DNA of 64,000 nt from a bacterium (GCA_023249225.1 JAHFDA010000005.1:7995-71994), one strand, 5' to 3'. Numbered from the stretch's first letter, positions 21,365 to 51,241 are shown. Notes: a model not told the origin generated them from the sequence alone. Translations and numbers: made by a program.

Positions 21365-21376
21365 TCCAAGAAAATT

Positions 21377-21583: not shown

Positions 21584-21658
21584 ATAAAATCGCCCCGTTT
21601 AGAAAATCTAAAAAATCCGTTCAATTTTTATCAGGCCGCCTGCGATATTGCATTACTC

Positions 21659-26015: not shown

Positions 26016-26155
26016 CCCGCACTATTCATACTTTACTCGTAGCCCGCTAAATGCGCGGGCTGCGTGAAGTAAAGGATGCTTCGAAAGTATGCATTATTCA
26101 CGATATGCGGGTTCCCGTGTGTAATAGTCCGCTTCATATGCGTGAATAATCCAGG
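26016..26155. repeat. REP-like intergenic repeat element, family 1, long variant (copy B, inverted orientation, ~140 bp)
   Basis: Contains the family core CTTCATATGCGTGAAT...GCGGGTTCCCGTGTGTAATAGTCCGC plus a 55 bp internal insertion with a CCCGCGCATTTAGCGGG hairpin. Preceded by an 11 bp perfect stem TAGCGGCAAGG-ca-CCTTGCCGCTA at 25981-26006. Confidence 0.6.
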
Positions 26156-26548
26156 CTAGGTCGACAACTCGTGTTTATCACCCACAGCCGTATGATCACC
26201 TAAAATATTAACCAAGGTAATACGGTTTGTGGCCGCAATGACCCAAGCCGTAGGAGCGGCGGCGTTACAATTGGCGGGCACAGTTGCAGTCCCTTGGGCA
26301 TTTGGCCAATATTTAGCCGCCACGGCCGCGCCACCCCAACCAGCGGTGGTCATGGCCGTAGGATAACTGCCGATGTTCGTATAATAACTTTCAATCTGCT
26401 TGTCGATATTGTTACGATCATATTTATGTGAATTGGCTTTGGAATTGGCGCTACTAGAACTGAACCGGGGCAATACCACGGCCGCCAAAATTCCCAGGAT
26501 CGAGATCACAATTAACATTTCGATTAACGTAAAACCTTTGTTTTTCAT
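26156..26548 (-). CDS. Type IV pilin (major pilin-like, class III signal peptide), paralogue 1
   Basis: MKNKG|FTLIEMLIVISILGILAAVV carries the prepilin peptidase site (G-1, F+1, E+5). 130 aa. About 85% identical to the 27045-27437 copy. Confidence 0.85.
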   Translation of the reverse strand: MKNKGFTLIEMLIVISILGILAAVVLPRFSSSSANSKANSHKYDRNNIDKQIESYYTNIGSYPTAMTTAGWGGAAVAAKYWPNAQGTATVPANCNAAAPTAWVIAATNRITLVNILGDHTAVGDKHELST

Positions 26549-26571
26549 TGCACGCTACCTTTCGGTGATGC

Positions 26572-26958
26572 CTAGGTCGTGTTTTCATGCTTGTCGCCAG
26601 CTGCATGGTGCCCGTTGATCATGTCGGCCATAATGACGCGGCCATTGGCATCCAGCACCCAATTGGTTTTTTGGTTGCACTGCCAGGTAGCCCCGCCACT
26701 TAAAGTTGTATCCGGAAAATACGTCTGAAACGTAACCTGCCCACCCCAGCCAACATAGGTCATGGCACTAGGTATCGAGCCAATATCGGTCTGATATAGC
26801 TCGGACTGGGTGTTAATCAGACTGCGTTCAGTCATGTGGGCATTTTTTTTGGCATCGTCGGAACTACCCGTAAAACGCGGCAAAACAATGGCCGCCAGCA
26901 CCCCTAAAATGGTGACCACAATTAATATCTCGACCAGCGAAAAACCCTTATTTTTCAT
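26572..26958 (-). CDS. Type IV pilin, divergent paralogue 2
   Basis: MKNKG|FSLVEILIVVTILGVLAAIV. 128 aa. C-terminal GDKHE motif shared with the flanking copies. Confidence 0.85.
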   Translation of the reverse strand: MKNKGFSLVEILIVVTILGVLAAIVLPRFTGSSDDAKKNAHMTERSLINTQSELYQTDIGSIPSAMTYVGWGGQVTFQTYFPDTTLSGGATWQCNQKTNWVLDANGRVIMADMINGHHAAGDKHENTT

Positions 26959-26987
26959 ATGACAACCCCCAATCAGATAGACCTCTC

Positions 26988-27017
26988 TAAAAAAAGACCC
27001 TGGTGTTACCCAGGGTC
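26988..27017 (-). terminator. Rho-independent terminator downstream of pilin paralogue 3
   Basis: On the minus strand: GACCCTGG-taaca-CCAGGGTC hairpin, followed by a run of seven T. It sits 30-55 nt after the stop of the 27045-27437 gene. Confidence 0.55.
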
Positions 27018-27044
27018 TTTCAGCACTTCAGCAAGTCACTGTCA

Positions 27045-27437
27045 TTAAGAGGTGAGCTCGTGTTTATCGCCCACAGCTGTATGATCACCTGCGGTATTAA
27101 CCAAGGTAATACGGTTTGTGGCTGAAATCGTCCAAGCCGTAGCCGCTGTAGCATTACACACAGCAGGCACAGAGGTAGCACCCTGTGAATTTGGCCAGTA
27201 TTTAACCGCCACGGCCGCGCCACCCCAACCAGCGGTGGTCATGGCCGTAGGATAACTTCCATTGTCGGCATAAAAGTTTTCAATTTGTTTGTCGATATTA
27301 TTGCGATCATACTTATGTGAATTAGCCTTGGAATTGGCTGTGCTGGCGGTAAACCTGGGCAATACCACCGCCGCCAAAATACCCAGGATGGTCACCACGA
27401 TTAACATTTCAATCAGCGTAAACCCTTTTTTATTCAT
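27045..27437 (-). CDS. Type IV pilin, paralogue 3 (first gene of the tandem array)
   Basis: MNKKG|FTLIEMLIVVTILGILAAVV. 130 aa. AAGGAG RBS upstream. Confidence 0.85.
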   Translation of the reverse strand: MNKKGFTLIEMLIVVTILGILAAVVLPRFTASTANSKANSHKYDRNNIDKQIENFYADNGSYPTAMTTAGWGGAAVAVKYWPNSQGATSVPAVCNATAATAWTISATNRITLVNTAGDHTAVGDKHELTS

Positions 27438-27706
27438 AACTCTTCTCCTTTATTTTTTTTATTTCCTTTAAGCCCTTTATCGGATCTATGGTTTTAAAAC
27501 TTGCATTCAGAATTTTTCTTTTTTAATAATACCCAATATTTAAGCGGTTTAAACATGAAAATTTATGGGCTTTGTAAATTTTATGGCGTGCGTAATTATG
27601 CTTAAAAACTACCACTCCGCCTTTCAGGCACCCTTAAGCCAGCTCCCTCTCTCCGTAATCCAACAAACCGCAGAGTTGTAACACCTTTTCATATGCGTGA
27701 ATAATC

Positions 27707-27915
27707 GTAACTATTCAGCCTTACCGTTGTTCGTAATCCCAGTGGCAGGGCCACTGGGCGCTGGACAGAGGGCATTCCACTTTTAAGCCCAGGCAAGGCC
27801 TGGGGGTTTCAGAACACGCAGGCCCTGCCTGCATGCCTGGAAAAAAAGTGCACATGTCCAGCTCGCATGCGGCCCCTGCCGCTGTGCCTGGTATGTGGCA
27901 AAGCTGAATAGTTAC
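27707..27915. mobile_element. MITE-like element copy 2 (~209 bp), inserted into a family-1 REP-like repeat with 8-bp target-site duplication
   Basis: Same 13 bp TIRs as copy 1. Flanked by GAATAATC (27699-27706) and GAATAATC (27916-23). The flanks reconstitute the REP-like terminus ...CATATGCGTGAATAATCCAGG. Confidence 0.7.
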
Positions 27916-27927
27916 GAATAATCCAGG

Positions 27928-28737: not shown

Positions 28738-29474
28738 GTTCTTAACTTGCCAATATACCAGTCTTCGAGACTGCCGCCTTGCGTGGGATTCCAATAATCT
28801 ACAGTCTTGCCAAGATTAAGCAGATGCACGGCATGGGCTAGTTGCTGCACGTCTGACAGTATGTGTGAGCAGATAAACATGCTGGTGCCGCCACCCTGAA
28901 GCTCTTTAAGCACATCAATAATGTCACGTCGGCTTAGCGGGTCGAGGCCCGAAAAAGGTTCGTCCAAAATCAATAGACCCGGATTTTGAATTAAGGCAAT
29001 GGTCAGGGCCAGTTTCTGACGCATGCCCTTGCTATAGGTCGAGACGGCATTCTTCTGCCGGGGTTCATCCAGGTGCATTCTCCGTAACCAGTGATTACTG
29101 CGTTCGCGAATTGCCTCTGCAGCAAGACCTTTAAGTCGGCCAAAATACAAAATATTTTCGTCGCCGCTGGCCCAGGGATACAAGGCGGGAGTCTCGGGCA
29201 CGTAGGCCACTCTCTGACGCGCCTTGGGAATACCCGGGTTTTCTCCGTATAAAGTAATTTTTCCCTTATCTGGACGCATTAAGCCGAGCAAGAGCCTGAT
29301 CAGCGAGGTTTTACCGGCACCATTTGGACCGACCAAAACATAAGTTTGTCCATCCGAAACGGTAAAACTAATATTGTCCACCGCCCGCACAGTTTGGCGG
29401 GCGTTTAATCCGGTGACGTATGTCTTGCAGAGTTGTTCAACGCTAATGGGTGTCATGGCTGTTTTCAAAAGCAA
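28734..29474 (-). CDS. ABC transporter ATP-binding protein
   Basis: Walker A GPNGAGKTSL. ABC signature and Walker B LILDEPFSGLD. H-loop. Confidence 0.85.
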   Translation of the reverse strand: MLLKTAMTPISVEQLCKTYVTGLNARQTVRAVDNISFTVSDGQTYVLVGPNGAGKTSLIRLLLGLMRPDKGKITLYGENPGIPKARQRVAYVPETPALYPWASGDENILYFGRLKGLAAEAIRERSNHWLRRMHLDEPRQKNAVSTYSKGMRQKLALTIALIQNPGLLILDEPFSGLDPLSRRDIIDVLKELQGGGTSMFICSHILSDVQQLAHAVHLLNLGKTVDYWNPTQGGSLEDWYIGKLRT

Positions 29475-30285
29475 ATTTATTTTTATTATAGCGGTAAGGA
29501 TAGCCCCATGGGTCTTCGGGAAGCTGATTCAGCAGTTGCGCTTTAATCAACTCATCAACCGACTCGGGTATCTGTTTGTGGATATCATAAAATAGATGCA
29601 ATTTTGAGTTGAGCGCAAGTAAAAATATCTGGTTCATGTAGTGCTTTAGGCCTTTTTGAAGCTGCTCTTTTAAGGCTTTATCCTGGGTTTGTTCGGCAAA
29701 TTCAAATAGCAGCTTCCAGGCTTCTTCGGGCTTGCCCTGGGCCGCTGTAAAACGAATGGCCATGCTTTTAAGCATGGTCTTGGTGGCCGGATAGGGGCAC
29801 AGTTCCCAGGCACGATTATAGTAATCGCTGGCACTGGCATAATCTGCCAAAAAATAATAAGCGTTAAAGGCCCGCCACAAAGGAAACAGGTAGTTTTCAG
29901 GCAAATTTTGCATCCCTTTTTCAAGCAGGGCATTGCTTAGGTCGTAACGGTGGGCCTCCCAGGCCAGCAATATTCCGCCAGTTTCGTAGGGATACGTAAA
30001 CCGGGGGTCAATGGTGGTGCTTTGCTGGCAAGCCTGATAAAAGTATTCCCAGTCTTTTTCGTTACGCAGCTGGCGGGCAAAGCCCTTTAAAAAGGCCACA
30101 TCCGCCAGGATATTGCGGTATCCCATAGACAACTTGTTTAAAAACTCTCCCGGCCATACGGCGGGATAAAGTTTGGGCTTTAAGAGCTGCTGCTGGTAAA
30201 GCTGCCCATGGAATGATCCGCACCCCAGCGCCAGCAAACCAATCAGCAGTCCACCTTTAATTTGACGCAGAAAATACTTTTCCAT
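29443..30285 (-). CDS. Hypothetical lipoprotein (lipobox LALGC), helical/TPR-like
   Basis: N-terminal MEKYFLRQIKGGLLIGLLALGC|GSF. No recognisable family. Overlaps the ABC ATPase gene. Confidence 0.45.
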   Translation of the reverse strand: MEKYFLRQIKGGLLIGLLALGCGSFHGQLYQQQLLKPKLYPAVWPGEFLNKLSMGYRNILADVAFLKGFARQLRNEKDWEYFYQACQQSTTIDPRFTYPYETGGILLAWEAHRYDLSNALLEKGMQNLPENYLFPLWRAFNAYYFLADYASASDYYNRAWELCPYPATKTMLKSMAIRFTAAQGKPEEAWKLLFEFAEQTQDKALKEQLQKGLKHYMNQIFLLALNSKLHLFYDIHKQIPESVDELIKAQLLNQLPEDPWGYPYRYNKNKFAFENSHDTH

Positions 30286-30438: not shown

Positions 30439-32292
30439 CTAGATGTTAATAATCTGCGGCGTAATGGTAATAATCAACTCGCGCTCGTCTTTGTCTTCAA
30501 CCGTGCTGGCAAAAAAACTGCCGATGACCGGCAATTGCCCAAGTAAGGGCAGCCCTGTTTTAGTGACCGTATCGGTGGAACTTAACAGACCGCCGATGAC
30601 CGCTGTTTCACCGTCGTTGATCCGTAACGTGGTTGAGGCCTCGCGGGTCTGTACTTGTGGAATGTTGCTGATATAACCCGAAATAAAACTGACTTCGGTC
30701 GAGATTTGCACGGTGATACTGCTGTCAACCGGATTGATCAGCGGTGTCATCTTAAGGCGTACGCCCACCTCGACGGTTTCTACCTCACTGGTGGTGCCGC
30801 CTGAAGCCGAAGTGCTGGTGTTGACATAGGGCACCTCATCGCCAATAAAGATACTGGCTTCTTTGTTGTTTAAGGCCGACAGGCGTGGGGTGGCCAGCAC
30901 ATGGGCGTTGGCTTGTTCAAAAGTTGCATCTAAATTGGCTGCCAAACCAATGTTGCTTAAGGTAGCCTCGTGAATGGGTGCCTGCAAAGGCACGGTGTAG
31001 GTGGTTTTAAGGCCCGAGGTGTCAATTTTAAGACCCAGTTTGTCTAGTTTGCTACGGCTGATTTCGGCCACTTTGACTTCGATAATCACTTGTTGGGGCT
31101 TGCTGCGGTCAATTTGTTCCAGAATACTTTCGAGGCGCTCAAAGGTGCTTTGCATGGCTTTGATAATCAGCATGTTTTCATCGGCCGATTCCTGGATGGA
31201 TTCGCCCTGGTCGGAGGAAATAAAATTTTTAAGGATGTTCATGGCATCGGCAGATTTGACGTTTTTAAGCTGATAGACCTGAATGAGCAGCGTTTTAAAA
31301 GATGCTAAGTTGGCCCGTGGGGCAATAAAAATGGTGTTTCCAATGCGCTCATAATCATATCCGTTGGCTTTTAGAATAAGATCCAGGGCCTTGTCGAGCT
31401 CAACATCTTTTAAATGGATGGTGATATGCCCCACCATGCTTTTGTCGCCAATAAAATTTAACCCGGTTTTTTCGGTCATAATGGGGATAATGTCTTGAAT
31501 GTCAGTGTCGATCACATTCAGCGAAATATATTTTTTTCCAAGATCTTCCTGACCGGGAGCAATGGTGCTGTAGGTAAGTGTGCGCAGCGCCTCGGTAAAG
31601 GTTCCATCGGCTTTGTATGCCGTGACATGCACAGTATTTTCACCAAGCACCAGCGGTACCTTGGTCGAAAAACGCCCACCATCTCCAATTTCGACGGGAT
31701 TGTTATTGACCTCAACCCGTGTGGCTCCCTTGGCCAGACCTTTGACCAAGACCTTGCTTTTTGACGTGGTAAACGCATGCGGAGGTTCTAAAATGGTCAG
31801 CTCGGGGTTCTGGACCTCGTTGTCTCCTGCTTCTTTGGTCAATCGCTTAACACTGCGGATCACGCTATCCTTTTCACCATTTTTACGCAGGGCATCGATC
31901 TGGATCATAAAGAGTCCGGGTTTAGGTAATGGCACCCTGGTCTCAAACTCACCTGCGTTGCCAATGGGTACTTCTTGCCCATTCACTTGGAGCCGTTCCG
32001 CGCTGCGCACGATTCCTCGCACCATCACGAATGATTCATACGTGGTGGTGGAATCACCTGGCGTCATCAGTTCGATGGACGGACTTTGTCCGGGTACAGA
32101 CGGTTGATCAAGTTGAACATTAATTTCCTTGGCCAGGATTGTCACAGGCATTGTGATCAAGCCAGCAATAACCATCCCTGCCAGTGCCCGCTGCCCAAGT
32201 TTTTTCACAATAAGAGTACTTAACCTCTTAACCACGCTTGTTCCACCCTTCGCCCCGCGCCTTACCATGATTATTCCACACCCACCCCACAA
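30439..32292 (-). CDS. Secretin (PilQ/GspD family outer-membrane channel)
   Basis: C-terminal secretin domain VLATPRLSALNNKEASIFIGDEVPY...GVRLKMTPLI...GETAVIGGL...LPLLGQLPVIGSFF...ITITPQII. Confidence 0.85.
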   Translation of the reverse strand: MWGGCGIIMVRRGAKGGTSVVKRLSTLIVKKLGQRALAGMVIAGLITMPVTILAKEINVQLDQPSVPGQSPSIELMTPGDSTTTYESFVMVRGIVRSAERLQVNGQEVPIGNAGEFETRVPLPKPGLFMIQIDALRKNGEKDSVIRSVKRLTKEAGDNEVQNPELTILEPPHAFTTSKSKVLVKGLAKGATRVEVNNNPVEIGDGGRFSTKVPLVLGENTVHVTAYKADGTFTEALRTLTYSTIAPGQEDLGKKYISLNVIDTDIQDIIPIMTEKTGLNFIGDKSMVGHITIHLKDVELDKALDLILKANGYDYERIGNTIFIAPRANLASFKTLLIQVYQLKNVKSADAMNILKNFISSDQGESIQESADENMLIIKAMQSTFERLESILEQIDRSKPQQVIIEVKVAEISRSKLDKLGLKIDTSGLKTTYTVPLQAPIHEATLSNIGLAANLDATFEQANAHVLATPRLSALNNKEASIFIGDEVPYVNTSTSASGGTTSEVETVEVGVRLKMTPLINPVDSSITVQISTEVSFISGYISNIPQVQTREASTTLRINDGETAVIGGLLSSTDTVTKTGLPLLGQLPVIGSFFASTVEDKDERELIITITPQIINI

Positions 32293-32294: not shown

Positions 32295-32780
32295 TTATAT
32301 CTCCTTCATCTCCCCTACCTTAATAAACACCTTCTTGTAACTGCGCCTAACCTCGACTCCTAACGGATTGATATCCACCACTTCCATGTCAAAAATCTGC
32401 TGGCCTTTAGACACTCGAAATATGGTTTCTTCAACAGCAATAATGGCTTTAGGCAGATCGACAATCACCACGCCTTTCACTGTCAGATGGTAGGTCTGCT
32501 GAAATACATTAGCTGTAGACATGTCAGACGCCTCAAAAGGTTTAAACAGTTCGCGGTCGCTGGGCGTGAATAAATTTTTCCAATCCTCAACGATATCTTT
32601 AGAAGGCAACGCTGCAACCGGTGGCGACACCTTGCTTAGGTTAATATTCTGCTGTAGTTCATTTAATTTTTGTTTAATCTGGCTGGACACATCCTTTTGG
32701 GTCTTTTTTTTAAGCAAATCGCATCCCGACAGGGCCAGGGCCACTGCCATAAGTAAAATGCCATAGCGTTTAAATGGCAT
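32295..32780 (-). CDS. PilP-like pilus assembly lipoprotein (lipobox ALSGC)
   Basis: 161 aa lipoprotein immediately upstream of the secretin, as PilP is in pilMNOPQ operons. Confidence 0.45.
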   Translation of the reverse strand: MPFKRYGILLMAVALALSGCDLLKKKTQKDVSSQIKQKLNELQQNINLSKVSPPVAALPSKDIVEDWKNLFTPSDRELFKPFEASDMSTANVFQQTYHLTVKGVVIVDLPKAIIAVEETIFRVSKGQQIFDMEVVDINPLGVEVRRSYKKVFIKVGEMKEI

Positions 32781-33405
32781 AAAATAACACCAGTGTCACC
32801 ATCAGCATTTGCTTGCTGTCTTTGGCAGGATCAATGCTAAGGTCTTTGTAACTTACCCGTTGTGGCAGCGCCTTTATTTTTGCAAATAAAGTGGCAATTT
32901 GTTTTGTGCTTCCCAGCAGACGCACGTCTAAGAACATTTGGTACAAGGCGTCATTGACCTGCTGCTGTGGCTTGCGCTGGATGGTATCTACCCGGCAGCC
33001 GCTATCCTGAATAAGTTGTGGAAGCACCTGATTGCTGAATTTTAAAGCCTCGGCTGGCGAAAATAACAGGGTTTGTACTTGAACCAGGCGCTCGGAGAGT
33101 TCCTTTCGTTTTTTTTCGGCTGCCCGCTTGCGTCGCTGCAAAATCTCCAGTTCCTGTTCCTGTGCGTGATACTGCGCCTTGGCCTGTTGCAGCTTTTGAT
33201 ACTGGTTGTAAAAGTTAAATTGAAACGTTAAAAAACAGAGCAATAAAGCCACACCCGCATACACCACACTCTGGTTCTTTTGAAACCATAAAGCACCCGG
33301 ATGGTCCAGGACAGGCAAAGTCATTAGTTTTTTTTCAAATTGATTCCATAATCTAAAAAAGAGTTTTTGAAATTTATGCATTTTACAGGGTCGCCTGTAG
33401 CACAA
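32770..33405 (-). CDS. PilO-like bitopic inner-membrane pilus assembly protein (start possibly internal)
   Basis: Single TM VVYAGVALLLCFLTF followed by a coiled-coil and periplasmic domain. Position between the PilM/N fusion and PilP-like gene. Confidence 0.45.
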   Translation of the reverse strand: MCYRRPCKMHKFQKLFFRLWNQFEKKLMTLPVLDHPGALWFQKNQSVVYAGVALLLCFLTFQFNFYNQYQKLQQAKAQYHAQEQELEILQRRKRAAEKKRKELSERLVQVQTLLFSPAEALKFSNQVLPQLIQDSGCRVDTIQRKPQQQVNDALYQMFLDVRLLGSTKQIATLFAKIKALPQRVSYKDLSIDPAKDSKQMLMVTLVLFYAI

Positions 33406-34843
33406 ACTTGGTTTGATAACTGGTCTCGGTGATAATATTTTCCACTGACCTGATTTCCACCCGCGAAAGGTAATGGTTTACCTGATCCACCAGCATGTTG
33501 ACAGACGATTCTAGAATGCATCGTCCGTGTAGCTCCAGGGTATCGGGCGGGATATATTTAATCTGGGTCAGCCAACTGTCCTCGGGCATCACAGACTGCA
33601 GCATGGCGATGATCACGTCCAGATCGGGAACCTTGGTTTCGACTTCCTGGTAGAGTTTTAGCTTGGTTTCAATATCAGCATAGTTGACTTCCATTTCTTG
33701 AGACAGGGCAATCAAACGGCGATAACGGCCCTCCCATTCCAAAATATGCCATTTAAAGAAACTGAAAGAAGCCACATTAAGCGCAATGATGGCTAGCACG
33801 GCAGCCGCCAAGATACCCACGGATTGTGGATTAAAAAAATATTTGCGGCGCAGCAGGCTGTCGAAGATGGTAGGGTGCGACAGCTCTTTATTAAGCCGTG
33901 CCCCTTCAACCAGGGCCGCTAACGCGGCCATCCACACCTGTGGATGGGGCACCGGACCTTCTGGGATGGAGGTAAAAAGGTGCAGCGGCTCGAGCGAATT
34001 GACCTGGCTGGCCTTGCATACCTCGGCCATACGCTCGGCCAAGGGTTTAAAATGGCCGTTCCAGGCAAACACAGAAACCTGTCCAATCGACACCCCGCCC
34101 GCATACTTGGCCTGCAAAGCTAAAAAAAGGCTTTTAAGGCGTTTAAGCACTTCGGCCTGTTCGTCATCCCATTGGCGCAACGCGGCTTCGGTCTGCTGTA
34201 CCCGATGCAGTTCAATTAAACGGTGGCCGCAGAAAATTGAGAATTCGCTGTATTTTTCACCCACATACAGCCCCATCTGATAGACATCGGGCGAAGCATC
34301 GGCATCAATTAAAAACGCCATGCAGCCGATTTGATCTACGCTGCTTAGGCCGCCGATGCGCAGCGCCGTATATTCCAGCGTAGACTGCCAGGCCTGAAAG
34401 GTTGCCTCGGGCACGTTTAGGTAATACACCGGGATTTTTTGAAATAAATCTCCGCTGCCACCAGGGGGCGGTTGAAAATAAACGATCTGTGGAAGGGCGG
34501 TTTCGGGCGATGCGCTGCTGGAATCCTGCTCACCCACCTTATTCACCAGGATTTCGTGAATCTCGGCGTTGTTTAGCCCATGCAGATCCATTACATTGTG
34601 TCCGATGATGCCCTCGGCAATCGTCACATGCACCGAACGTGCTTGTGGGTACTCTGACAGGATGTTGTTTAAAAAGGGGCCCAACACCCCAGCATTGGGA
34701 AAGCCTTCGGCGGCAAAACTGTCCGATGGCAAGGCCTGGTGGGCCCAGGAAATGACCTTACGTTCGAGATAATCTATCAGTACCAGTGCCACCCCATCCG
34801 CATGGAGGGTAATTCCCAAACACAGATCCCCCCGGCTGGCCAT
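33383..34843 (-). CDS. PilM-PilN fusion (actin-like ATPase-fold PilM domain plus C-terminal bitopic PilN-like region)
   Basis: 486 aa. The N-terminal about 330 aa are cytoplasmic PilM-like. TM ILAAAVLAIIALNVASFSFF near residue 345. A coiled-coil tail follows. Confidence 0.55.
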   Translation of the reverse strand: MASRGDLCLGITLHADGVALVLIDYLERKVISWAHQALPSDSFAAEGFPNAGVLGPFLNNILSEYPQARSVHVTIAEGIIGHNVMDLHGLNNAEIHEILVNKVGEQDSSSASPETALPQIVYFQPPPGGSGDLFQKIPVYYLNVPEATFQAWQSTLEYTALRIGGLSSVDQIGCMAFLIDADASPDVYQMGLYVGEKYSEFSIFCGHRLIELHRVQQTEAALRQWDDEQAEVLKRLKSLFLALQAKYAGGVSIGQVSVFAWNGHFKPLAERMAEVCKASQVNSLEPLHLFTSIPEGPVPHPQVWMAALAALVEGARLNKELSHPTIFDSLLRRKYFFNPQSVGILAAAVLAIIALNVASFSFFKWHILEWEGRYRRLIALSQEMEVNYADIETKLKLYQEVETKVPDLDVIIAMLQSVMPEDSWLTQIKYIPPDTLELHGRCILESSVNMLVDQVNHYLSRVEIRSVENIITETSYQTKFVLQATL

Positions 34844-34867: not shown

Positions 34868-35440
34868 TTAGATGTGTTTAATCTTGAGAAAACGTTTCAG
34901 CTCGCTGGATTCCACAAAAAAAGAAATCTTTCCGTCGGAGTTAGACTTTAAAAACCGTTTGTATTTTTGCACCACGACAGTCTGGGTGCCCTTGGTCACG
35001 AGGCCGAAACCACGGATATCGTATTTAGAAACGTCATAAGGATAAATGTTAACCCCATAGATAGATTCATCTGCTTGATAATAATTGGCATTGACCTTGC
35101 GGTAGAAAATATAAACCGCAGCGGGATCCACTTGAGTCAAGTCTATGGAAAGTTCTACATTGGTCAAAGCAATCGGTGGATCGCCATTGGCGTACACATT
35201 CCAGGTGGTGGTCTTGCTGGGCCCTATCGGATCCGGAATGTTGTCGGTCAGCTGCAGGTGAGCCACCATTTCCTCTATAGCCGAATCGGCCAGAATATCG
35301 GCCTGCAACGTCAGGCGGTCGTTGCGTGCGGCACGTAGGCTCATCTGCATGGAATACAAGAGCCCCCCCGCCCCCAAGGCAGCAATCATGGCCCCAATCA
35401 GCACCGCCAGAAACACGCTCCCGCGCTTATTTTTGATCAC
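34868..35440 (-). CDS. PilX-like minor pilin (PilX_N-type N-terminal helix)
   Basis: MIKNKRGSVFLAVLIGAMIAALGAGGLLYSMQ resembles the PilX N-terminal domain. 190 aa. Confidence 0.5.
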   Translation of the reverse strand: MIKNKRGSVFLAVLIGAMIAALGAGGLLYSMQMSLRAARNDRLTLQADILADSAIEEMVAHLQLTDNIPDPIGPSKTTTWNVYANGDPPIALTNVELSIDLTQVDPAAVYIFYRKVNANYYQADESIYGVNIYPYDVSKYDIRGFGLVTKGTQTVVVQKYKRFLKSNSDGKISFFVESSELKRFLKIKHI

Positions 35441-35449: not shown

Positions 35450-38400
35450 TTAGAACAGGCCGTAGCCAACACGCAGTTTATCCACATCGGGTCGGTTATA
35501 CGTGCGGCCCGCCCCGTTGTTGGCCAGTTTGCCCACCATGTGTAGGCAGTACCAAAAGCTTTTAGATGCCACCCCCGCCAGCGAAATATTGATGTTTGCT
35601 TTAACATTGGAACGTGAATCTTCAAACACTTCGAGCTGCAGGTTCCAGGTTATGCCATCTGGTGACAGATATAGCGCATAACCGGTTCCCTTAAGGGAAC
35701 TTGTCCCATAAACCTGCACATTTTTTAAACTGGTGTAACGTCGGTCTGCCACCGCTAACTGCGCGTCTACGGGCACAACTTCGTATGAATTCAAATTACC
35801 GGCAAAACCCGGATATTCAAAATATCCGATATCGGGATTAAAACCGGTATAATCACTGCCTAATTTTGTGCCCCGGGTACCCTTGTCAATGGCCAGCGAA
35901 CTGGCGCTGACCATGGTGATTTCAAAAATAGTGCCCATGTCAGTTAAAAAAACAGGATCCTTTCTAGAATTTCCCAGCGTTGCGTCCAACGTAAAATTAG
36001 CACTGTCAACAATCGACTGCTCTAAATTCAACACGCTGCCAACACCCTTGAATAGGCCGTATTTGGCATGATTCCAAAGGATATTGTTTCTGGCCGTTAA
36101 CGTGGTTCCGTTGCCATAAACGCATACGCCATCACTGCCATCGGTGGCATCATTGGCGCGAAATGTGCAATTTTCTAAGTAGCCTATCGCACCGCCCAGC
36201 ATCTCGATCGCACCGCCGCTCCCGGGCGTACCTGAATTCACCACATTTTCAGAAAAGATGCAGCGGTTAATGCCAAACAAACCTCCGTAAATGGCCAGAG
36301 CACCGCCATAATTAGGCGCCACATTGCCGTCAAACTCACATTCCTTAAAATAGATCAGGCTGTTGCTATCTAGAACAGCCGACACGGCACCTCCACCCAG
36401 GGTGCTGGTGTTGTTTGAAAATGTATTTTCAAGAATATTAATATTCATTCCGAGTGCTATAGACGAATTGGTCTGGTTAATGCGGATAGAGCTTTTAACG
36501 TTGGTGGCATCTTGAAACCAACTATCCCGGATCGTCAGATTAACGACTTTAGGATTTTCAAAGGCAGTCCCGGCATTGCTAAAATTGATAGGCGATTTGC
36601 CGCCACCCGTGCGATTAAAGGCACATTCGGCAATGATGACGTTAGACTCTTTGGTTTGACTGGAATTGTAATAAACGTTTACTGCATCCTGAACCAAATC
36701 ATTGAATTGAATTTGCCTGATATCCAATGTGACCGGGTTGACCATGGTCAGGGGCACTCCACCACCAGGCGGTGTCCACTTGATCTTTGAGCGTGCATCC
36801 CAGCCATAGATCGTTAAACCACTCACCACCGGGGCCAGAGACTCGGTATAGGCACCGCTGCAGTAGTCTTCCAACAGAATTTTATCGTTATCCCGCGCAA
36901 AATTAAGTGCGCTAACCAGACTTACAAAAGGTTTGCTGACCAGGCCTTCTTGAAAGGCTGGATCAAGGTCGCCCAGCTGCGGATCCCAGCAACCCGCAAA
37001 AATAGCGCGGTTAGGCGTGCTGGCCACACCCACGGTGCCTAAAAACTCTTGCGTGCCGCCATAGGCTCCCATGTCAGTTGCCACCACTCCCTGGGCGGGC
37101 GGAATAGCCGAGTCTGTGCCCGCCCAAGCACTGGAACCTGTGTCAATGGCTATGCTGGCAAGCGCCACGGTGGTTGTATCAGGTTTGCGAAAGGTGGTAG
37201 CGTTGATGGCCTTTAACTTAAAGCTGTTGGTCTGATACGTTTCGGAGAGCCACTTGCGACTAGCCGTACCTGGTCCGCCAGGACAAAAATTTGTATTCCA
37301 GTTCCAATTATAGGGAATATTGTCGTTGTGCCCCGGGCTGCCAGCATAAATCATGCCATTTTGCATACCATTGCTGGTTTCAATCATAATATAATTGACA
37401 CTGGCACCGCCTCCAAGCGGAATTTTGGTAGAAATGTCCATATCGGCAATGTCTGCGTTATAAAAGTAGTTGCTTTTAATTTTTGTTTCAGGCCTTTGGC
37501 CGCCATAGGCTTCGGGAACATCGGTATAGGTAGAGTAAATGGCCGTGCCCCCCGCCGGAAAATCAGCAAAAATATTGTTTTCAATCACCGGGTTGGCGTC
37601 ATCCATGTTGATGCAATAACCTTTCATGCCAGAGAACACATTGTTATAACACTTCCAGTTGTCAGCCACGCTGGCCAGGATATTGCCATTGTCAAACACG
37701 ACGCCACTGCTTTTGTAATTACGAAAGATGTTCCCAAAAATATGGGTCTGCGACATCCAGGCTGCAGGAGCGCTCGGATACATTTTGGCAATCCGAATCG
37801 CTTCATAAGAGGAGTCGGCGGCTTTCACGTAAGCATCAAAATAATTGTTATCAATCCATAAAGTGGCCGGCCCACCATCATAAAATACGGCCTGTATTCC
37901 GTAATTACCATCACCAAGCTGCTGGTCTAAGAACGAATTCTTTTGGATGCGCAGACCTTGGTCAGTCGATCCCGCAAACATAATGTGCATGTCATATTTG
38001 TTGTAGCGAAAAACATTATTGCGTACATAATGAAGCACTCCGTTAACCACGCTAGAATAGAACACTAGGCCATAGCTATTGTTGATAAAGTAGTTGTCTT
38101 CTATAAAACACGAAGCCCCTGGATCAGAAATGCTGACATTGCCGTATGGGTCAGAAGCCACATAAAGGTTAGGCGTGCTACGCCCCGCTATGGCCGAAGT
38201 TTTTGACTCAAAGTGGTTACCGTTAACATAGGCAGGCCCCACATTGCCCTGAATATAAACATGGTAGCGGTTGCCGCCTACAAATACATTATTGCGTACG
38301 GTTAAAGTGGCTCCAGAACCAAACCCACTTTCTTGAAACTCCATGCCGGTCATTCCGGCGCCCGCATAAGCCGCGTCTTTGTAATAACAATTTTCAACCG

Positions 38401-39496
38401 TGATACCGTTATCACGGTATGAATGCAGGTAAAAACCCAGGCCCCCGCTGGCATTGTCAAAAAAACAGTCCTGCACAATTACGCTGTCGTTGTTGTGTAA
38501 ATAGATTTTATTGGTTCCGCCTTGAAACGTAAGGTTTTCGATGACGAGCCCGGTTTTGTTGGAAATTTCGGGCTGTGTACTGGTTAAAATAATACAGTTG
38601 CGCTGGTCGATCCCATGCAGAACCACATTGCTTTGCGCCAGCGTCCATGGGCTCATGGTATAGGTACCGGCCTTAAGATTGATGGTAACGCCATTGCCCA
38701 CACAGTTGGCGATGGCAAAATCCAAGGTCTGAAAGGGGTCGTGATGGGTGCCCGAAACATCTGGGGCATTGTTGCCATTGACAGCATCCACCCAAATTTC
38801 AGGATTTTTGGTGGGGGTCAGTGGCCGCACCTTGGTGCTGGTATCAGTAAAATATTCTAGGTATTCATCGATCCTCGCTCCGGTTTCACAACTCACTGCC
38901 TGAACATTGAATTCGTCTCCATTCAGATTGGCATCGCCGTCATAGTAATTTCCGGATACATCCTGATAACTGGCAAACTTTAGGTACATCTCCTCGTGAA
39001 TCCCTGACTCGTGATCCAGCTTAACCAGCACGGATCCTACTTTTTCAGCATCAGTGCCCGAAAGCACGCCCCCAGAATTAAGCGGTGTTCCATTAGGTTC
39101 CTGAAAGCGATAAGCGACAAACTTAAGAGACGTGACGCCATCGAGCACATCGACCACGTCGGGTGGAATACCGGCTTGTACTGTATTGCCATTCAACTTA
39201 ATCCGAAACAAGGTGCTGCCATCTTCCATGTAGTAATCTAGGCGTCCAGAGCTGTCAGTACTTTGTGACACATACGAGACTGCGGTTCCATTTTGAAACT
39301 GGGTGGCCAGATAACTGAAAACCCCTTGAACCGACTCGCGATATGCTGCTTTTTGGCGTTGCGCCACCCAATTTTTGATGCTTTGGCGTGCCGCCGGTAA
39401 AGAAGCGGCAGTCACAACGCCCGCCACTAGGGTAGCGATCAGCACTTCGGCGAGAGAAAATCCCCGCTCGTTTTTAGTAAATTTTATGTTAAACAC
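35450..39496 (-). CDS. Giant pilin-like protein (1348 aa): prepilin-type N-terminal cleavage/methylation helix followed by right-handed parallel beta-helix repeats with Pmp-like GGAI/FxxN motifs; C-terminal Phe
   Basis: GTG start MFNIKFTKNERG|FSLAEVLIATLVAGVV (G-1, F+1, E+5). Repeats NNVFVGGNRYHVYIQGN, DNYFINNSYGLVFYSS, NNIFADFPAGGTAIYST. Pmp-like motifs YGGALAIYGG, GSGGAIEMLGGAIGYLENCTFRAN, FSEN, FDGN. Ends ...LRVGYGLF. First gene of the minus-strand pilus operon. Confidence 0.75.
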   Translation of the reverse strand: MFNIKFTKNERGFSLAEVLIATLVAGVVTAASLPAARQSIKNWVAQRQKAAYRESVQGVFSYLATQFQNGTAVSYVSQSTDSSGRLDYYMEDGSTLFRIKLNGNTVQAGIPPDVVDVLDGVTSLKFVAYRFQEPNGTPLNSGGVLSGTDAEKVGSVLVKLDHESGIHEEMYLKFASYQDVSGNYYDGDANLNGDEFNVQAVSCETGARIDEYLEYFTDTSTKVRPLTPTKNPEIWVDAVNGNNAPDVSGTHHDPFQTLDFAIANCVGNGVTINLKAGTYTMSPWTLAQSNVVLHGIDQRNCIILTSTQPEISNKTGLVIENLTFQGGTNKIYLHNNDSVIVQDCFFDNASGGLGFYLHSYRDNGITVENCYYKDAAYAGAGMTGMEFQESGFGSGATLTVRNNVFVGGNRYHVYIQGNVGPAYVNGNHFESKTSAIAGRSTPNLYVASDPYGNVSISDPGASCFIEDNYFINNSYGLVFYSSVVNGVLHYVRNNVFRYNKYDMHIMFAGSTDQGLRIQKNSFLDQQLGDGNYGIQAVFYDGGPATLWIDNNYFDAYVKAADSSYEAIRIAKMYPSAPAAWMSQTHIFGNIFRNYKSSGVVFDNGNILASVADNWKCYNNVFSGMKGYCINMDDANPVIENNIFADFPAGGTAIYSTYTDVPEAYGGQRPETKIKSNYFYNADIADMDISTKIPLGGGASVNYIMIETSNGMQNGMIYAGSPGHNDNIPYNWNWNTNFCPGGPGTASRKWLSETYQTNSFKLKAINATTFRKPDTTTVALASIAIDTGSSAWAGTDSAIPPAQGVVATDMGAYGGTQEFLGTVGVASTPNRAIFAGCWDPQLGDLDPAFQEGLVSKPFVSLVSALNFARDNDKILLEDYCSGAYTESLAPVVSGLTIYGWDARSKIKWTPPGGGVPLTMVNPVTLDIRQIQFNDLVQDAVNVYYNSSQTKESNVIIAECAFNRTGGGKSPINFSNAGTAFENPKVVNLTIRDSWFQDATNVKSSIRINQTNSSIALGMNINILENTFSNNTSTLGGGAVSAVLDSNSLIYFKECEFDGNVAPNYGGALAIYGGLFGINRCIFSENVVNSGTPGSGGAIEMLGGAIGYLENCTFRANDATDGSDGVCVYGNGTTLTARNNILWNHAKYGLFKGVGSVLNLEQSIVDSANFTLDATLGNSRKDPVFLTDMGTIFEITMVSASSLAIDKGTRGTKLGSDYTGFNPDIGYFEYPGFAGNLNSYEVVPVDAQLAVADRRYTSLKNVQVYGTSSLKGTGYALYLSPDGITWNLQLEVFEDSRSNVKANINISLAGVASKSFWYCLHMVGKLANNGAGRTYNRPDVDKLRVGYGLF

Positions 39497-40714: not shown

Positions 40715-41569
40715 ATGACTGTTGCTATTACCCCGCAATTGGTGCAGTCTCTGCGCCAAAAAACAAGTTCCGGCATGATGGACTGTAAAAAAGCTTTGGC
40801 CGAAGCAGGTGGCGACCTAGAAAAAGCCGTCGAAATTTTGCGTGTTAAAGGCCAGTTGAGTGCTGCCAAGCGTTCTGACCGTGTGACCAAAGAAGGTTAC
40901 GTGGTCTCGTGCGTGTCTGAAAACCGCAAGCAAGCCGCACTGGTGCACCTGGGTTGTGAGACAGACTTTGTTGCACGCAATCAGTCATTTCAGGCTTTTG
41001 CCGAAACTTTGGCTCGCCATGTGGTTCGCAGTGGGGCCATATCGGTGAACGAACTGCTTATGTCAGCTGTTCCGGGCATGAACGTTGCATCCGTCGCAGA
41101 CGGATTGAATGCGCTGGTTGCCTCTATCGGTGAAAAACTAGAACTTGGACGCGTGGCTTATCTTTTCTGTGACACCTGATTTATTCAGTCCTATATTCAT
41201 CCGGGTGCCAAAATTGGCGTTCTGGTGGCGCTTGAACAGGCCGACATCAACAAACAGGGCGACCTTGCCAAAGATTTGGCCATGCAAATTGCCGCTGCAG
41301 CTCCAGAATATCTGACCCCGGGGGATGTACCCGCTGAAAAACTGCAAAAAGAACTGTCCTTGATCAAAGAAGAGCTGCGTACGGCCGGAAAGCCAGAAGC
41401 CATGCTAGATAAAATTGCTCAGGGAAAAATAGGTAAGTTTTATACCGATGTTTGTTTGCTGAAGCAAGCCTTCATTAAAAATACTGACCTGACGGTAGAA
41501 GCTCACATGATTCAGCAGGCACCGGGAGTTAAAGTAAAAAGCTTTGTGCGTTTTGCGGTGGCAAGCTAA
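40715..41569 (+). CDS. tsf: Elongation factor Ts, interrupted by a single in-frame TGA at 41177-41179 (possible pseudogene, sequencing error, or readthrough)
   Basis: MTVAITPQLVQSLRQKTSSGMMDCKKALAEAGGDLEKAVEILR (UBA-like N-terminus) ...GEKLELGRVAYLFCDT*FIQSYIHPGAKIGVLVAL... Both halves are in the same reading frame per the ORF track (40640..41179 and 41225..41569). The combined length of 284 codons equals EF-Ts. Confidence 0.85.
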
Positions 41570-44959: not shown

Positions 44960-46408
44960 CTAGGAACGATCCAATACTTCGCGTACCAGGCGATTGACCA
45001 CATCGGGTTTGGCCTGGCCTTGAGTGGCTTTCATCACTTGCCCCACAAAAAATCCGGCCACCGATGTTTTACCGTTTTTGTATTGCTCGAGCGGGCCCGG
45101 GTTACTTTGAATGGCTTGTTCGATAAAGGGAATCAGATCTGCATCGTTGCCGATTTGCTTGACCCCCTTTAAAGCAATCACCTCATGGGGAGATTTGCCT
45201 TGCAATAAGTCTGGAAGAATCTCTTTGGCCAGTTTGCCCGAAAACGTGCCTGCTTCAACCAAGGCCACCAGATCGGCCATATGCGCGGGGCTTACGGATG
45301 GCTGCGTAAAGGAAAACTTGCCTTCGTTTGCCAGGGCCGACAAGTCTCCCAGCACCCAGTTGGCCACCTTTTTAACGGGCAATGTGCGACCGGCACAAAC
45401 CGCTTCAAAATAATGAAGACGTTGCGGATCATTCAGCAACTGCACAATGTCACTTTCTGGAAGCTGCGCCACCTGCAACTCGTGACGGATCTGGTCGGGC
45501 AGTTTAGGCTGCGAACTTTTGATCTGCGCCAGCCACGGGGCGTCTACGCCAAGCGGCAACAGATCGGGTTCCGGAAAATAACGATAGTCATGCGCTTCTT
45601 CTTTGCTACGCATAGATGTGGTCTGGCCGCTTTCGTCGTCGTAGTTTCGGGTTTCGAGCACAATGGCGCCACCGGAAAGGAGCACCTCTTTCTGGCGTGC
45701 AATTTCCGAAATTGCCGCCTGTTCTACCGCGCGAAAAGAGTTCATATTTTTGACTTCGGTGCGGGTGCCAAATTGAGAGCTGCCTAAGGGACGGATAGAA
45801 ATATTGGCGTCACAGCGTAGCGAGCCTTCTTCCATATTTCCATCACAGATTCCCAGAAAAACCAGTATGGAGCGAATTTTTTCTACATACAGGCGGGCTT
45901 CTTCGGCGCTGCGGATATCCGGCTGCGACACAATTTCGATCAGCGGCGTGCAAGCGCGGTTAAGATCCACAAGTGAATGCGTGGCGCCCTTAATAGAGGC
46001 GGCCCCTTGGTGCAGCAGTTTGCCGGCGTCTTCCTCAAGATGAATACGCGTGACACCAATACGCTTGGTTCCGGATGCAAGTGCAATATCGATACGCCCG
46101 TTTTCACAGAGTGGTTTATCGAACTGCGAAATTTGATAGCCCTTGGGCAGGTCGGGATAAAAATAGTTTTTGCGTGCAAAAATGCTTTGGACGTTAATGG
46201 TGCAGTTAAGCGCCAAACCCATGCGGATGGCAAACTCGACTGCTACTTGATTGAGTACGGGCAAGGCGCCTGGCTGACCGGTGCATACCGGACAGATGTT
46301 TGTATTAGGTGCGGCTCCAAATTGAGTGGAACAGCCACAAAATAATTTGGTCTTGGTTTTAAGCTGGGCATGAACTTCCATGCCGATCACGGGCTCGAAT
46401 TCGGTCAC
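44960..46408 (-). CDS. gatB: Asp-tRNA(Asn)/Glu-tRNA(Gln) amidotransferase subunit B
   Basis: MTEFEPVIGMEVHAQLKTKTKLFCGCS...CPVCTGQPGALP is the canonical GatB N-terminus. Confidence 0.9.
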   Translation of the reverse strand: MTEFEPVIGMEVHAQLKTKTKLFCGCSTQFGAAPNTNICPVCTGQPGALPVLNQVAVEFAIRMGLALNCTINVQSIFARKNYFYPDLPKGYQISQFDKPLCENGRIDIALASGTKRIGVTRIHLEEDAGKLLHQGAASIKGATHSLVDLNRACTPLIEIVSQPDIRSAEEARLYVEKIRSILVFLGICDGNMEEGSLRCDANISIRPLGSSQFGTRTEVKNMNSFRAVEQAAISEIARQKEVLLSGGAIVLETRNYDDESGQTTSMRSKEEAHDYRYFPEPDLLPLGVDAPWLAQIKSSQPKLPDQIRHELQVAQLPESDIVQLLNDPQRLHYFEAVCAGRTLPVKKVANWVLGDLSALANEGKFSFTQPSVSPAHMADLVALVEAGTFSGKLAKEILPDLLQGKSPHEVIALKGVKQIGNDADLIPFIEQAIQSNPGPLEQYKNGKTSVAGFFVGQVMKATQGQAKPDVVNRLVREVLDRS

Positions 46409-51097: not shown

Positions 51098-51177
51098 TAT
51101 AGATTAAGATGCTTTGGGACAATCAAAAGGCGCAATGCGTGTCTATGTTATGGGTGACTTATCCTATCCCGGATTAT

Positions 51178-51241
51178 TCACGCATATGAAGCAGATACCT
51201 ACACACGGGAGCCCGCTACAAGAGAGTATGAATAGTGCGGG
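51178..51241. repeat. REP-like intergenic repeat element, family 1, copy C
   Basis: cccggattATTCACGCATATGAAGCAGATACCTACACACGGGAGCCCGC...TATGAATAGTGCGGG, between the two TA operons. Confidence 0.6.

Follow-up and report, generated by a model that had tools for sequence, protein, structure and literature searches.

Modular pilins, in which a class III signal peptide and a pilin module precede one or more functional modules that are not pilin-like, were catalogued by Raynaud et al. in 2021, who regard them as "likely tip exposed" and expect them to be adhesins (PMC8179133). That census includes the architecture IPR012902-IPR039448, that is, N_methyl with the Pfam domain Beta_helix, in 3 proteins and in 2 more with a longer architecture, and the most extreme example that it singles out is an 860-aa protein with 12 repeat copies. 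The solved β-solenoid pilin ComZ of Thermus thermophilus carries a triangular, ice-binding-protein-like solenoid of ∼380 residues, inserted in a GspK-like fold after its penultimate strand and before its last; it binds DNA, and it could not be modeled into the fiber body, a steric argument for the pilus tip (PMC6561018). Cyanobacterial PilX and HpsA-like (PilX-EPS) minor pilins also bear bulky, sometimes very extended β-solenoids, the HpsA-like proteins exceeding 1,280 aa; in both, the solenoid sits inside the pilin fold and is linked to hps polysaccharide loci, and these pilins have been proposed to take the place of PilY1 as tip plug and adhesin (bioRxiv 10.64898/2026.02.12.705559). PilY1/PilC proteins themselves are tip adhesins that prime assembly (PMC8179133) and are encoded beside pilX-type genes, in the order pilY1-pilX in myxobacterial T4aP clusters (PMC6060248).

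Signal peptide and β-helix modules of the giant protein

We analyzed a 64,000-nt stretch of bacterial DNA (GCA_023249225.1, JAHFDA010000005.1:7995-71994), here called the window. A first-pass annotation had placed in it, without naming a strand, a 1,348-aa protein with a canonical type IV prepilin leader. Both descriptions held: the protein is encoded by a single continuous reading frame of 4,047 nt on the minus strand, with the following features.

35450..39496, minus strand: whole gene for a modular prepilin-type protein, 1,348 aa; GTG start, TAA stop
39461..39496, minus strand: leader peptide MFNIKFTKNERG, residues 1-12, identified from sequence; the Gly(-1) cleavage position is last
39386..39460, minus strand: hydrophobic α1N, residues 13-37; F1/E5/G14/P22, N_methyl and TIGR02532 above cutoffs
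38942..39496, minus strand: presumed pilin module, residues 1 to ∼185 (approximate bounds); long helix, then β-strands, in a low-confidence AF2 model
37052..38800, minus strand: β-helix module 1, residues ∼233 to ∼815; N-cap IWVDAVNGNN..DPFQTLDFAIANCVGNGVTINLKAGTY, end motif SIAIDTG...TDMGAYGG
35813..36919, minus strand: β-helix module 2, residues ∼860-1228; Pmp-type GGA[ILV]/FxxN rungs at 1026-1115, choice-of-anchor-Q-like end at 1184-1228
35453..35812, minus strand: C-terminal β-rich domain of ∼120 aa, ending ...LRVGYGLF, with an Asp-box-like SPDGITW; pLDDT below 50

The N-terminus, MFNIKFTKNERG/FSLAEVLIATLVAGVVTAASLP, opens with a basic leader of 12 residues, the last of them Gly, after which come F(+1) and, within a hydrophobic stretch, Glu(+5); with mature F1, E5, G14, and P22 all present, the class III signal is canonical at every hallmark position. 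N_methyl (PF07963, cutoff 21.2) scored 21.7 bits with the full protein and 24.8 bits with its N-terminal 190 aa. TIGR02532 scored 18.9 bits with the N-terminal 190 aa against a cutoff of 16.3 and 16.0 bits, just below it, with the full protein. Residues 12-37 form the sole transmembrane-like hydrophobic segment of the protein, and the leader and α1N align to the solved PilA 9laa and to geopilin, an alignment confined to residues 2-67 (the sequence match covers roughly the first 50). A six-frame motif scan of the window located an N-terminal class III signature only in this gene and in three small pilin genes. The single-sequence AF2 model of the N-terminal part, unreliable at a pLDDT of 33.5, contains a helix at 15-68 and strands at 85-109; a globular pilin fold, with α1C packed on an antiparallel β-sheet, is putative for residues 40-185.

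Two right-handed parallel β-helix modules follow, recognized by PF13229 scores above the cutoff together with three-dimensional matches to solved β-helices. In module 1, PF13229 reached 33.5 bits (cutoff 25.9) for residues 230-430 and 330-530 and NosD reached 26.6 bits for residues 230-530, alongside a sub-cutoff match to DUF4957; its cap aligned to the family profile of module 2 in hhalign with 94% probability (E 1e-7). Module 2 scored 27.8 bits with PF13229 for residues 1018-1167 and 28.6 bits with Chlam_PMP (PF02415, cutoff 20.6). The Pmp-like motifs reported in the first-pass annotation are real (GGA[ILV] occurs four times within 1035-1101, and FxxN at 1026, 1055, 1081, and 1112), but they occupy only ∼100 residues, all in module 2. 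Its claim of a body dominated by β-helix over ∼1,300 aa likewise stands in part: direct support extends over approximately residues 277-530 and 920-1190, so the larger figure is an extrapolation, and profile and sequence searches of Pfam, NCBIfam, and the PDB returned no match for residues ∼530-920, including 530-815 of module 1. Taken together, the data support the conclusion that the prepilin-type N-terminus is genuine and is fused to a large β-helix, Pmp-repeat-containing body. The presence of a separate N-cap and separate end motifs in both helix modules suggests solenoids that were appended after the pilin module and not inserted into it as in ComZ and PilX.

The terminal Phe of the protein was confirmed by translation, but the idea that it marks an outer membrane protein-like C-terminus found no support. 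The β-signal pattern calls for hydrophobic residues at -3, -5, -7, and -9, and the sequence ...DKLRVGYGLF has G, G, R, and K there. A domain of ∼120 aa cannot accommodate a barrel, and a terminal Phe is encoded by 3 of the window's 41 genes, among them one for a cytoplasmic NotI-like enzyme. No autotransporter or outer membrane protein domain was detected in the C-terminal 119-349 aa, even at E values up to 10, and residues 1229-1348 had no match in Pfam, NCBIfam, or the PDB.

With N_methyl, Beta_helix (twice), and Chlam_PMP, the giant pilin is a modular pilin as defined in PMC8179133. It shares with the catalogued proteins a class III signal and pilin module followed by non-pilin modules, but it has two independent β-helix modules, an additional C-terminal domain, and a length of 1,348 aa versus 860 aa; no sequence relationship to them was found, and IPR003368, the entry for the Pmp-type repeats that it contains, is absent from the accessible part of the supplementary listings of that census. 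Like ComZ, it combines a pilin-like protein with a large β-solenoid and is encoded beside at least one other minor pilin. Its helices, however, are of the pectin-lyase fold, with their own N-caps and apparently C-terminal appendages, and are about three times larger than the ComZ solenoid; a PDB sequence search revealed no similarity between the two. The bulky solenoid and the size above 1,280 aa are also shared with the cyanobacterial PilX and HpsA-like pilins, whereas the giant pilin comes from an unrelated deep-branching lineage, and an NCBIfam search of its body gave no HpsA-type or other match. Similarly to PilY1/PilC (∼1,000-1,500 aa), it is large and encoded next to a PilX-type minor pilin, and from the myxobacterial pilY1-pilX order we infer that its gene lies in the PilY1-equivalent position. 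PilY1, in contrast, is a Sec-signal protein with a C-terminal β-propeller and not a pilin, whereas the giant protein has a class III signal; PF05567/IPR008707 (PilY1, Neisseria_PilC) had no Pfam match on the giant pilin or its fragments. The GGA[ILV]/FxxN repeats recall chlamydial Pmp proteins, but unlike these and other autotransporters the giant pilin has no Sec signal, autotransporter β-barrel, or β-signal. The first-pass description of the design as extreme and unusual is not supported, as shown by the N_methyl-Beta_helix entries of the census (PMC8179133), by ComZ (PMC6561018), and by the HpsA-like proteins above 1,280 aa (bioRxiv 10.64898/2026.02.12.705559). The giant pilin is an orphan, an unusually large modular pilin of an already known design, without close relatives.

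The filament gene cluster and its relative

As the first-pass annotation stated, the gene opens a pilus operon. It diverges from rpsB and stands at the head of closely spaced pilM/N/O/P/Q-like genes on the same strand (gaps or overlaps of 9, 24, and 2 nt), which links it genetically to type IV filament machinery. The genes downstream of it are as follows, in order.

34868..35440, minus strand: PilX/GspK-like minor (pseudo)pilin, 190 aa, MIKNKRG/SVFLAVLIG..., without E5; GspK N-terminus E 3e-4, sub-cutoff; start codon ambiguous (182 aa in the ENA call)
33383..34843, minus strand: PilM-PilN-like (GspL/MshI-like) fusion, 486 aa; C-terminal PilN domain match, sub-cutoff
32770..33405, minus strand: PilO/GspM-like protein; PF04350 23.7 bits (cutoff 22), GspM E 4.5e-6
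32295..32780, minus strand: lipoprotein, 161 aa, with a lipobox-like LALSGC N-terminus, in the PilP/MshK position; assigned by position only, no family match in Pfam or NCBIfam
30439..32292, minus strand: secretin (PilQ/GspD-like) with STN/N0, Secretin_N, and two Glucodextran_B-like N-terminal domains; PF00263 148.7 bits
27928..30285, minus strand: 280-aa TPR-like protein, ABC ATPase, and ABC-2 permease in a PilG/H/I-like arrangement, between the secretin and pilin genes
26156..27437, minus strand: three tandem paralogous pilins of ∼130 aa, MKNKG/FTLIEMLIV..., with G14 and P22; N_methyl 37.9 bits, GspG N-terminus E 1.6e-13

The secretin scored 197.6 bits as PilQ (TIGR02515) versus 179.5 bits as GspD, both under the equivalog cutoffs, and the PilG/H/I-like set has its precedent in pilGHI of myxobacterial and deltaproteobacterial T4aP clusters (PMC6060248). 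The three small pilins, of which copies 1 and 3 share 81% DNA identity, each contain a single Cys and are likely the major subunit or subunits. No PilY1 domain was found in the cluster.

The first-pass annotation had proposed a search for homologues, and its outcome was divided. A search of 1.84 billion representative proteins detected no homologue of residues 1-930, but one relative keeps the operon in syntenic order: a large gene (937 aa or more, truncated by the contig edge) lies directly upstream of a 181-aa gene and a PilM-N-like gene whose product (P0152) is 49% identical to that in the window.

Alternatives to a tip-borne adhesin

The order of big pilin, GspK-like protein, GspL-like fusion, and GspM-like protein is that of gspJ-K-L-M. 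This order, the GspK, GspM, and GspD matches in the cluster, the best N-terminal match of the small pilins (GspG, with the disulfide pair absent), and a window without a visible retraction ATPase would all fit a T2SS-like system or endopilus, a short periplasmic pseudopilus in which the giant subunit is a GspJ/K-type cap that remains beneath or inside the secretin as plug, piston head, or periplasm-spanning tether and is never surface exposed. We consider this unlikely, since the secretin scores slightly higher as PilQ than as GspD, the pilM/N/O/P/Q order closes with the secretin, and the cluster resembles T4aP clusters (PMC6060248) in its three tandem pilin paralogues and PilGHI-like ABC set. 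Genes for T2SS substrates, GspC, GspE, and GspF are all absent nearby. A β-helix typically has ∼22-25 residues and 4.8 Å per rung; a rough geometry estimate puts the rod made by the two modules at more than 150 Å, which would be hard to fit in a periplasmic pseudopilus cap.

Alternatively, the filament might display an enzyme like those of phage tailspikes, with one or both β-helix modules acting on polysaccharides as a lyase, hydrolase, or depolymerase. Similarity of fold does not discriminate here, as the adhesins PfbA, Vag8, and SRRP score nearly as high as enzymes, and this reading is made improbable by identities of 8-17% to any enzyme, by the lack of an identified catalytic motif, and by Pmp-type repeats, which are characteristic of adhesins. 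A variant in which a tailspike-like depolymerase or lyase, joined directly to a pilin, sits at the filament tip with the C-terminal domain as a glycan-recognition module appears quite improbable; our literature search found no example of an enzymatic β-helix on a type IV pilin.

In the archaeal bindosome, sugar-binding proteins are cleaved by prepilin peptidase and held in a non-filament surface structure. The class III signal of the giant protein might similarly serve export or anchoring only, the protein being cleaved and then released or placed in such a structure, or staying unprocessed as a periplasmic protein anchored in the inner membrane. PilFind did not predict even the pilin ComZ to be a prepilin peptidase substrate (PMC6561018), and the globular pilin fold of the giant protein is a putative one, modeled at a pLDDT of 33.5. 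We nevertheless judge this reading very improbable, as E5, G14, and P22 are all conserved and the gene shows tight translational packing with genes for assembly proteins and a minor pilin. In pilins, the importance of E5, G14, and P22 lies in assembly of the filament and not in cleavage.

A chimeric assembly or frameshift that joined a small minor-pilin gene to a gene for a Sec-dependent β-helix adhesin is scarcely credible: although 0 of the 149 retrieved matches to module 2 have a pilin N-terminus, most having ordinary signal peptides, and tsf elsewhere in the window has a suspicious in-frame stop, the frame is unbroken over 4,047 nt with even GC content, the identical 1,348-aa product (P0001) is on record in NCBI and ENA assemblies (contigs of 80.9 and 44.5 kb), the relative's large gene (937 aa or more) occupies the corresponding position, and no internal start with a signal peptide, or second hydrophobic segment, exists at the pilin/helix junction.

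Proposed assembly and function

With modest confidence, we favor the reading in which a T4aP- or MSH-like type IV filament system carries the giant protein as a modular minor pilin and tip-borne adhesin. The first-pass annotation had suggested a tip or decorating adhesin, which is still the most economical reading, and the protein is probably a tip adhesin or glycan binder. Counting against this reading, the 64-kb window contains none of the PilD, PilB, PilT, and PilC genes (prepilin peptidase, assembly and retraction ATPases, and platform), and the cluster has only two minor-pilin-like genes versus the usual four.

Under the tip-adhesin model, the class III signal and α1N would anchor the giant pilin in the inner membrane with its body of ∼1,300 aa in the periplasm, and a prepilin peptidase encoded elsewhere would cut after Gly12 and methylate Phe13. 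The giant pilin would join the PilX/GspK-like protein, whose gene lies 9 nt downstream, and probably other minor pilins in a priming complex assembled on a platform of the PilM-N, PilO, and PilP-like proteins. Polymerization of the small pilins beneath it would then push the giant pilin out through the secretin to the filament tip, a placement of bulky pilin modules for which ComZ, the modular pilins, and cyanobacterial PilX provide precedents. Two stacked right-handed β-helix rods and the small C-terminal β domain would point along the fiber axis, and rods and domain are predicted to bind a ligand on a surface, a polysaccharide or the surface of another cell being the likeliest. Were a module enzymatic instead, the cell could cut through EPS, capsule, or a polymeric substrate and then bind that same substrate; a depolymerase or lyase fused to the pilin would give this deep-branching bacterium an extendable, possibly retractable enzymatic "drill" for cutting into and holding EPS, capsule, or another cell.

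Prepilin N-terminus and gene order

The giant gene, divergent from rpsB and tsf, encodes a protein that begins with a basic 12-residue leader ending in Gly (MFNIKFTKNERG, followed by FSLAEVLIATLVAGVVTAASLP). The mature sequence has Phe 1, Glu 5, Gly 14, and Pro 22, the four hallmark positions of the type IVa pilin alpha1N. Pfam N_methyl passed its gathering cutoff of 21.2 both with the whole protein (21.7 bits) and with its first 190 aa (24.8 bits), and TIGR02532 passed its cutoff on the N-terminal fragment (18.9 against 16.3). Leader and alpha1N can be aligned to solved PilA (9laa) and to geopilin, and alpha1N is the only hydrophobic, transmembrane-like segment of the protein. When all six frames of the window were scanned for the motif, the N-terminal prepilin signature turned up elsewhere only in the cluster's three small pilin genes. 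Because these lines of sequence evidence agree, we conclude that the predicted prepilin-type N-terminus is real and no chance match, as the first-pass annotation had proposed. That annotation also placed the gene first in a pilus operon, and a tight run of five genes, secretin included, does follow it with 9-, 24-, and 2-nt gaps or overlaps.

Giant gene, its operon, and the nearby pilin genes
35450..39496, minus: giant gene, single open reading frame of 1348 aa, start GTG, stop TAA
Behind the giant gene: PilX/GspK-like protein, 190 aa, MIKNKRG/SVFLAVLIG (predicted cleavage at the slash), without E5; match to the GspK N-terminus at E 3e-4, below cutoff
Behind the giant gene: PilM-PilN-like fusion of the GspL/MshI kind, 486 aa
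Third gene behind the giant gene: PilO/GspM-like protein
Between the PilO/GspM-like gene and the secretin gene: lipoprotein, 161 aa
30439-32292, minus: secretin
26156-27437, minus: three tandem paralogous pilins, ~130 aa each, with canonical signals

The PilM-N-like protein has a single homologue, 49% identical, on a contig with the same operon order (ENA ERZ27296333, Logan SRR14366772; here called the relative). At the place of the three tandem pilins, whose first and third copies share 81% DNA identity, the relative's contig has only one pilin, so the likely major subunit has expanded locally here. Two Glucodextran_B-like beta-sandwich domains (78 bits) form the N-terminus of the secretin and are also present in the relative's secretin; AMIN domains are usual at this position in T4aP PilQ. 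A 153-nt gap behind the secretin gene leads to genes for a TPR-like protein, an ABC ATPase, and an ABC-2 permease, a set reminiscent of pilGHI in the T4aP clusters of myxobacteria and deltaproteobacteria (PMC6060248). The TPR-like protein (280 aa, 29443-30285, minus, between the secretin and ABC genes) ends with a GspG-like DPWGYPYRY and weakly matches T2SSG/GspG positions ~57-104 (E ~0.05).

No gene for a prepilin peptidase, a PilB/PilT ATPase, or a PilC platform protein was found within the 64-kb window. A PilS/PilR-like pair (PAS histidine kinase and sigma-54-dependent response regulator; 12786-15232, minus) lies ~11 kb from the pilin genes. Matches to a sigma-54 promoter in the vicinity of the giant gene or the pilin genes were at chance level, as were sigma-70 and terminator scans. 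Inside the giant gene, we found no repeats of the diversity-generating retroelement (DGR) or phase-variation type.

The window has several other features. A ~220-nt direct repeat, 92-95% identical between its copies, has one copy between the gene for the ABC-2 permease and the first of the pilin genes (27703-27923) and the other between two giant Lon-like genes (21373-21591); it had no match in Rfam. Three intergenic sites (15302-15378, 26088-26164 [inverted], and 51163-51222) hold copies of a 55-77-nt element that are 81-85% identical. The element could be REP-like or terminator-like, and one copy lies immediately 3' to the last pilin gene. The adjacent Lon-like proteins (17720-25339, plus; 1214 and 1267 aa) have N-terminal extensions of ~750 aa with no Pfam matches. 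The first Lon-like reading frame, as called mechanically, overlaps at its start with a tRNA-Gln gene (17779-17852), and its true start is therefore further downstream. The EF-Ts gene tsf (40715-41569, plus) is split into two reading frames by an in-frame TGA at codon 154 (41177-41179); in ENA's version of this contig, an intact tsf of 284 aa is called. We rejected an alternative genetic code because TGA is a normal stop here, ending 10 of the 41 genes; rather than recoding, the codon suggests an error in the sequence, a difference between strains, or a pseudogene.

The beta-helix body and C-terminus

By sequence, the giant protein can be divided into five parts.

Parts of the giant protein
Residues 1 to ~185: presumed pilin module
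Between the pilin module and module 1: linker
Residues ~233 to ~815: beta-helix module 1, with a classic cap (IWVDAVNGNN...DPFQTLDFAIANCVGNGVTINLKAGTY) and the end ...SIAIDTG...TDMGAYGG
Residues ~860-1228: beta-helix module 2, with its own cap (KPFVSLVSALNFARDNDKILLED..GAYTE) and the end SSLAIDKG...DIGYFEY
Last ~120 aa, after module 2: C-terminal domain

Module 1 scored 33.5 bits with Pfam Beta_helix (cutoff, 25.9) in each of two stretches, residues 230-430 and 330-530, and 26.6 bits with NosD (cutoff, 23.6). At 94% probability, hhalign matched its cap to the profile of module-2-type proteins. Module 2 scored 27.8 bits with Beta_helix and 28.6 bits with Chlam_PMP (cutoff, 20.6), and its end resembles choice-of-anchor-Q (NF041518, E 0.0076, below cutoff). 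The chlamydial Pmp-type motifs noted in the first-pass annotation are present, the four GGA[ILV] motifs and the FxxN motifs all falling within residues 1026-1115. With a 40-sequence alignment, AlphaFold2 modeled module 2 with a pLDDT of 85-96 at residues ~1020-1130 and at least 70 across most of 920-1170, and Foldseek returned the same fold class with weak E-values; AlphaFold2 on residues 1-830 as a single sequence gave a pLDDT of 33.5, too low to be usable for the pilin fold or module 1. The earlier description of the protein as dominated by beta-helix is plausible, with direct support for about 520 residues only, because residues ~530-920 and 1229-1348 match nothing in Pfam, NCBIfam, and PDB searches (E up to 10 for the latter stretch), beyond an insignificant reelin jelly-roll match (E 1.1) around the Asp-box-like SPDGITW of the C-terminal domain. 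A recent internal duplication was rejected as the origin of the two modules, since BLASTP between them detected only rung-level similarity (E 0.006).

An outer membrane protein (OMP)-like C-terminus had also been suggested, and this reading failed. The protein does end in Phe (...DKLRVGYGLF), but the BAM beta-signal requires hydrophobic residues at positions -3, -5, -7, and -9, which here hold G, G, R, and K. Even at E up to 10, searches of the C-terminal region detected neither an autotransporter nor an OMP domain, and the ~120 residues that follow module 2 are too few for a barrel. Terminal Phe is found in 3 of the 41 window genes, one of which encodes a NotI-like restriction enzyme. We therefore rejected the beta-signal and autotransporter interpretation, and the protein provides no link between pili and outer membrane insertion, contrary to the initial suspicion. 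AlphaFold2 confidence over the C-terminal domain was below 50. A discoidin- or CBM-like lectin identity for this domain was our own guess, and the Pfam, NCBIfam, and PDB searches did not support it. A NotI-family restriction endonuclease gene of the window adjoins a D12-class adenine methyltransferase-like gene (8836-10669, plus).

Relatives of the protein and of its source

In word-indexed homologue searches, the full giant protein found no protein but itself, and its first 280 aa found none. When residues 1-1200 were compared exhaustively with 1.84 billion representatives by phmmer, 251 matches reached E<=1e-3. In all of the best 150 of these, the best-scoring stretch fell within residues ~930-1190, and these matches therefore gave no alignment for residues 1-930. 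None of the 149 proteins retrieved had a pilin N-terminus; most had Sec signals, and several were eukaryotic Pmp-like repeat proteins. By these searches the giant protein is effectively an orphan.

Directly upstream of a 181-aa gene, the contig of the relative breaks off inside a gene that codes for 937 aa or more; one relative at least therefore also keeps a very large gene at this place in the operon. The product of that gene was not among the phmmer matches, so it is either missing from the library searched or highly divergent. Scans of genome and metagenome contigs with the PilM-N alignment found nothing, and a metagenome contig scan with the secretin found only one distant, nonsyntenic, high-GC locus (L081).

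GatB (44960-46408) was at best 54% identical to any of 185,579 GTDB species representatives, and its best matches (50-54%; loci L001-L080) were scattered across Margulisbacteria, Desulfobacterota, Ignavibacteria, Acidobacteria, and others, too wide a spread for assignment to a phylum. Judged by this marker, the source organism belongs to a poorly sampled lineage with no close relative, cultured or sequenced, among GTDB representatives.

A candidate modular minor pilin

The most economical explanation, which we favor slightly, is that the giant protein is a modular minor pilin. Following family biology, alpha1N would insert it in the inner membrane, prepilin peptidase would cleave and methylate it, and a priming complex would recruit it together with the PilX/GspK-like neighbor. 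Growth of the small-pilin fiber would then expel it through the secretin; at the tip, both beta-helix rods and the C-terminal domain would be displayed and would serve in adhesion or glycan binding. A rigid appendage of ~1150 aa cannot fit the fiber body, so the steric arguments made for ComZ (PMC6561018) would hold even more strongly here. In myxobacterial clusters the order is pilY1-pilX (PMC6060248); because the giant gene holds the place of pilY1 in this order and no PilY1 domain is present, its product may be a pilin-fused functional analogue of PilY1.

Other explanations fare less well. The same tip could be enzymatic (a depolymerase), which we regard as unlikely, and a pilus-tip polysaccharide depolymerase in particular as a little less likely still. 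A T2SS-like periplasmic pseudopilus cap is also unlikely; in its favor, the neighbors include GspK-, GspL-, and GspM-like proteins, and against it, the PilQ score of the secretin is slightly above its GspD score. That the class III signal serves only export or anchoring is decidedly improbable. Fusion by misassembly or frameshift is very improbable, an identical product being recorded on both an 80.9-kb NCBI contig and a 44.5-kb ENA contig.

The first-pass annotation had called the design extreme and unusual, but neither the combination nor the size is new. Raynaud et al. (2021) distinguished 264 architectures among >1,200 modular pilins, and their Dataset S1 includes IPR012902-IPR039448 (PMC8179133), the second entry being Pfam Beta_helix. 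The solved structure of the pilin ComZ includes a beta-solenoid of ~380 residues (PMC6561018), and cyanobacterial PilX/HpsA-like pilins have extended solenoids and exceed 1,280 aa, with a PilY1-like tip role proposed for PilX there too (bioRxiv 10.64898/2026.02.12.705559). What is particular to the giant protein is the stacking of two pectin-lyase-fold modules, apparently appended rather than inserted, together with Pmp-type rungs, an extra C-terminal domain without a family match, and residues 1-930 without any detectable relatives.

The protein is thus not a new kind of system; it extends the range of modular pilins to two stacked pectin-lyase-fold rods with Pmp-type rungs and an extra C-terminal domain. 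How a rigid rod of ~1300 aa could pass the secretin becomes a testable mechanical question. Estimated from typical fold dimensions, a beta-helix rod lying along the fiber axis is in principle narrow enough to pass. If the modular minor pilin reading is right, this would be among the largest pilin-fused effector modules seen and a natural example of a PilY1-type tip-adhesin function hard-wired into a pilin.
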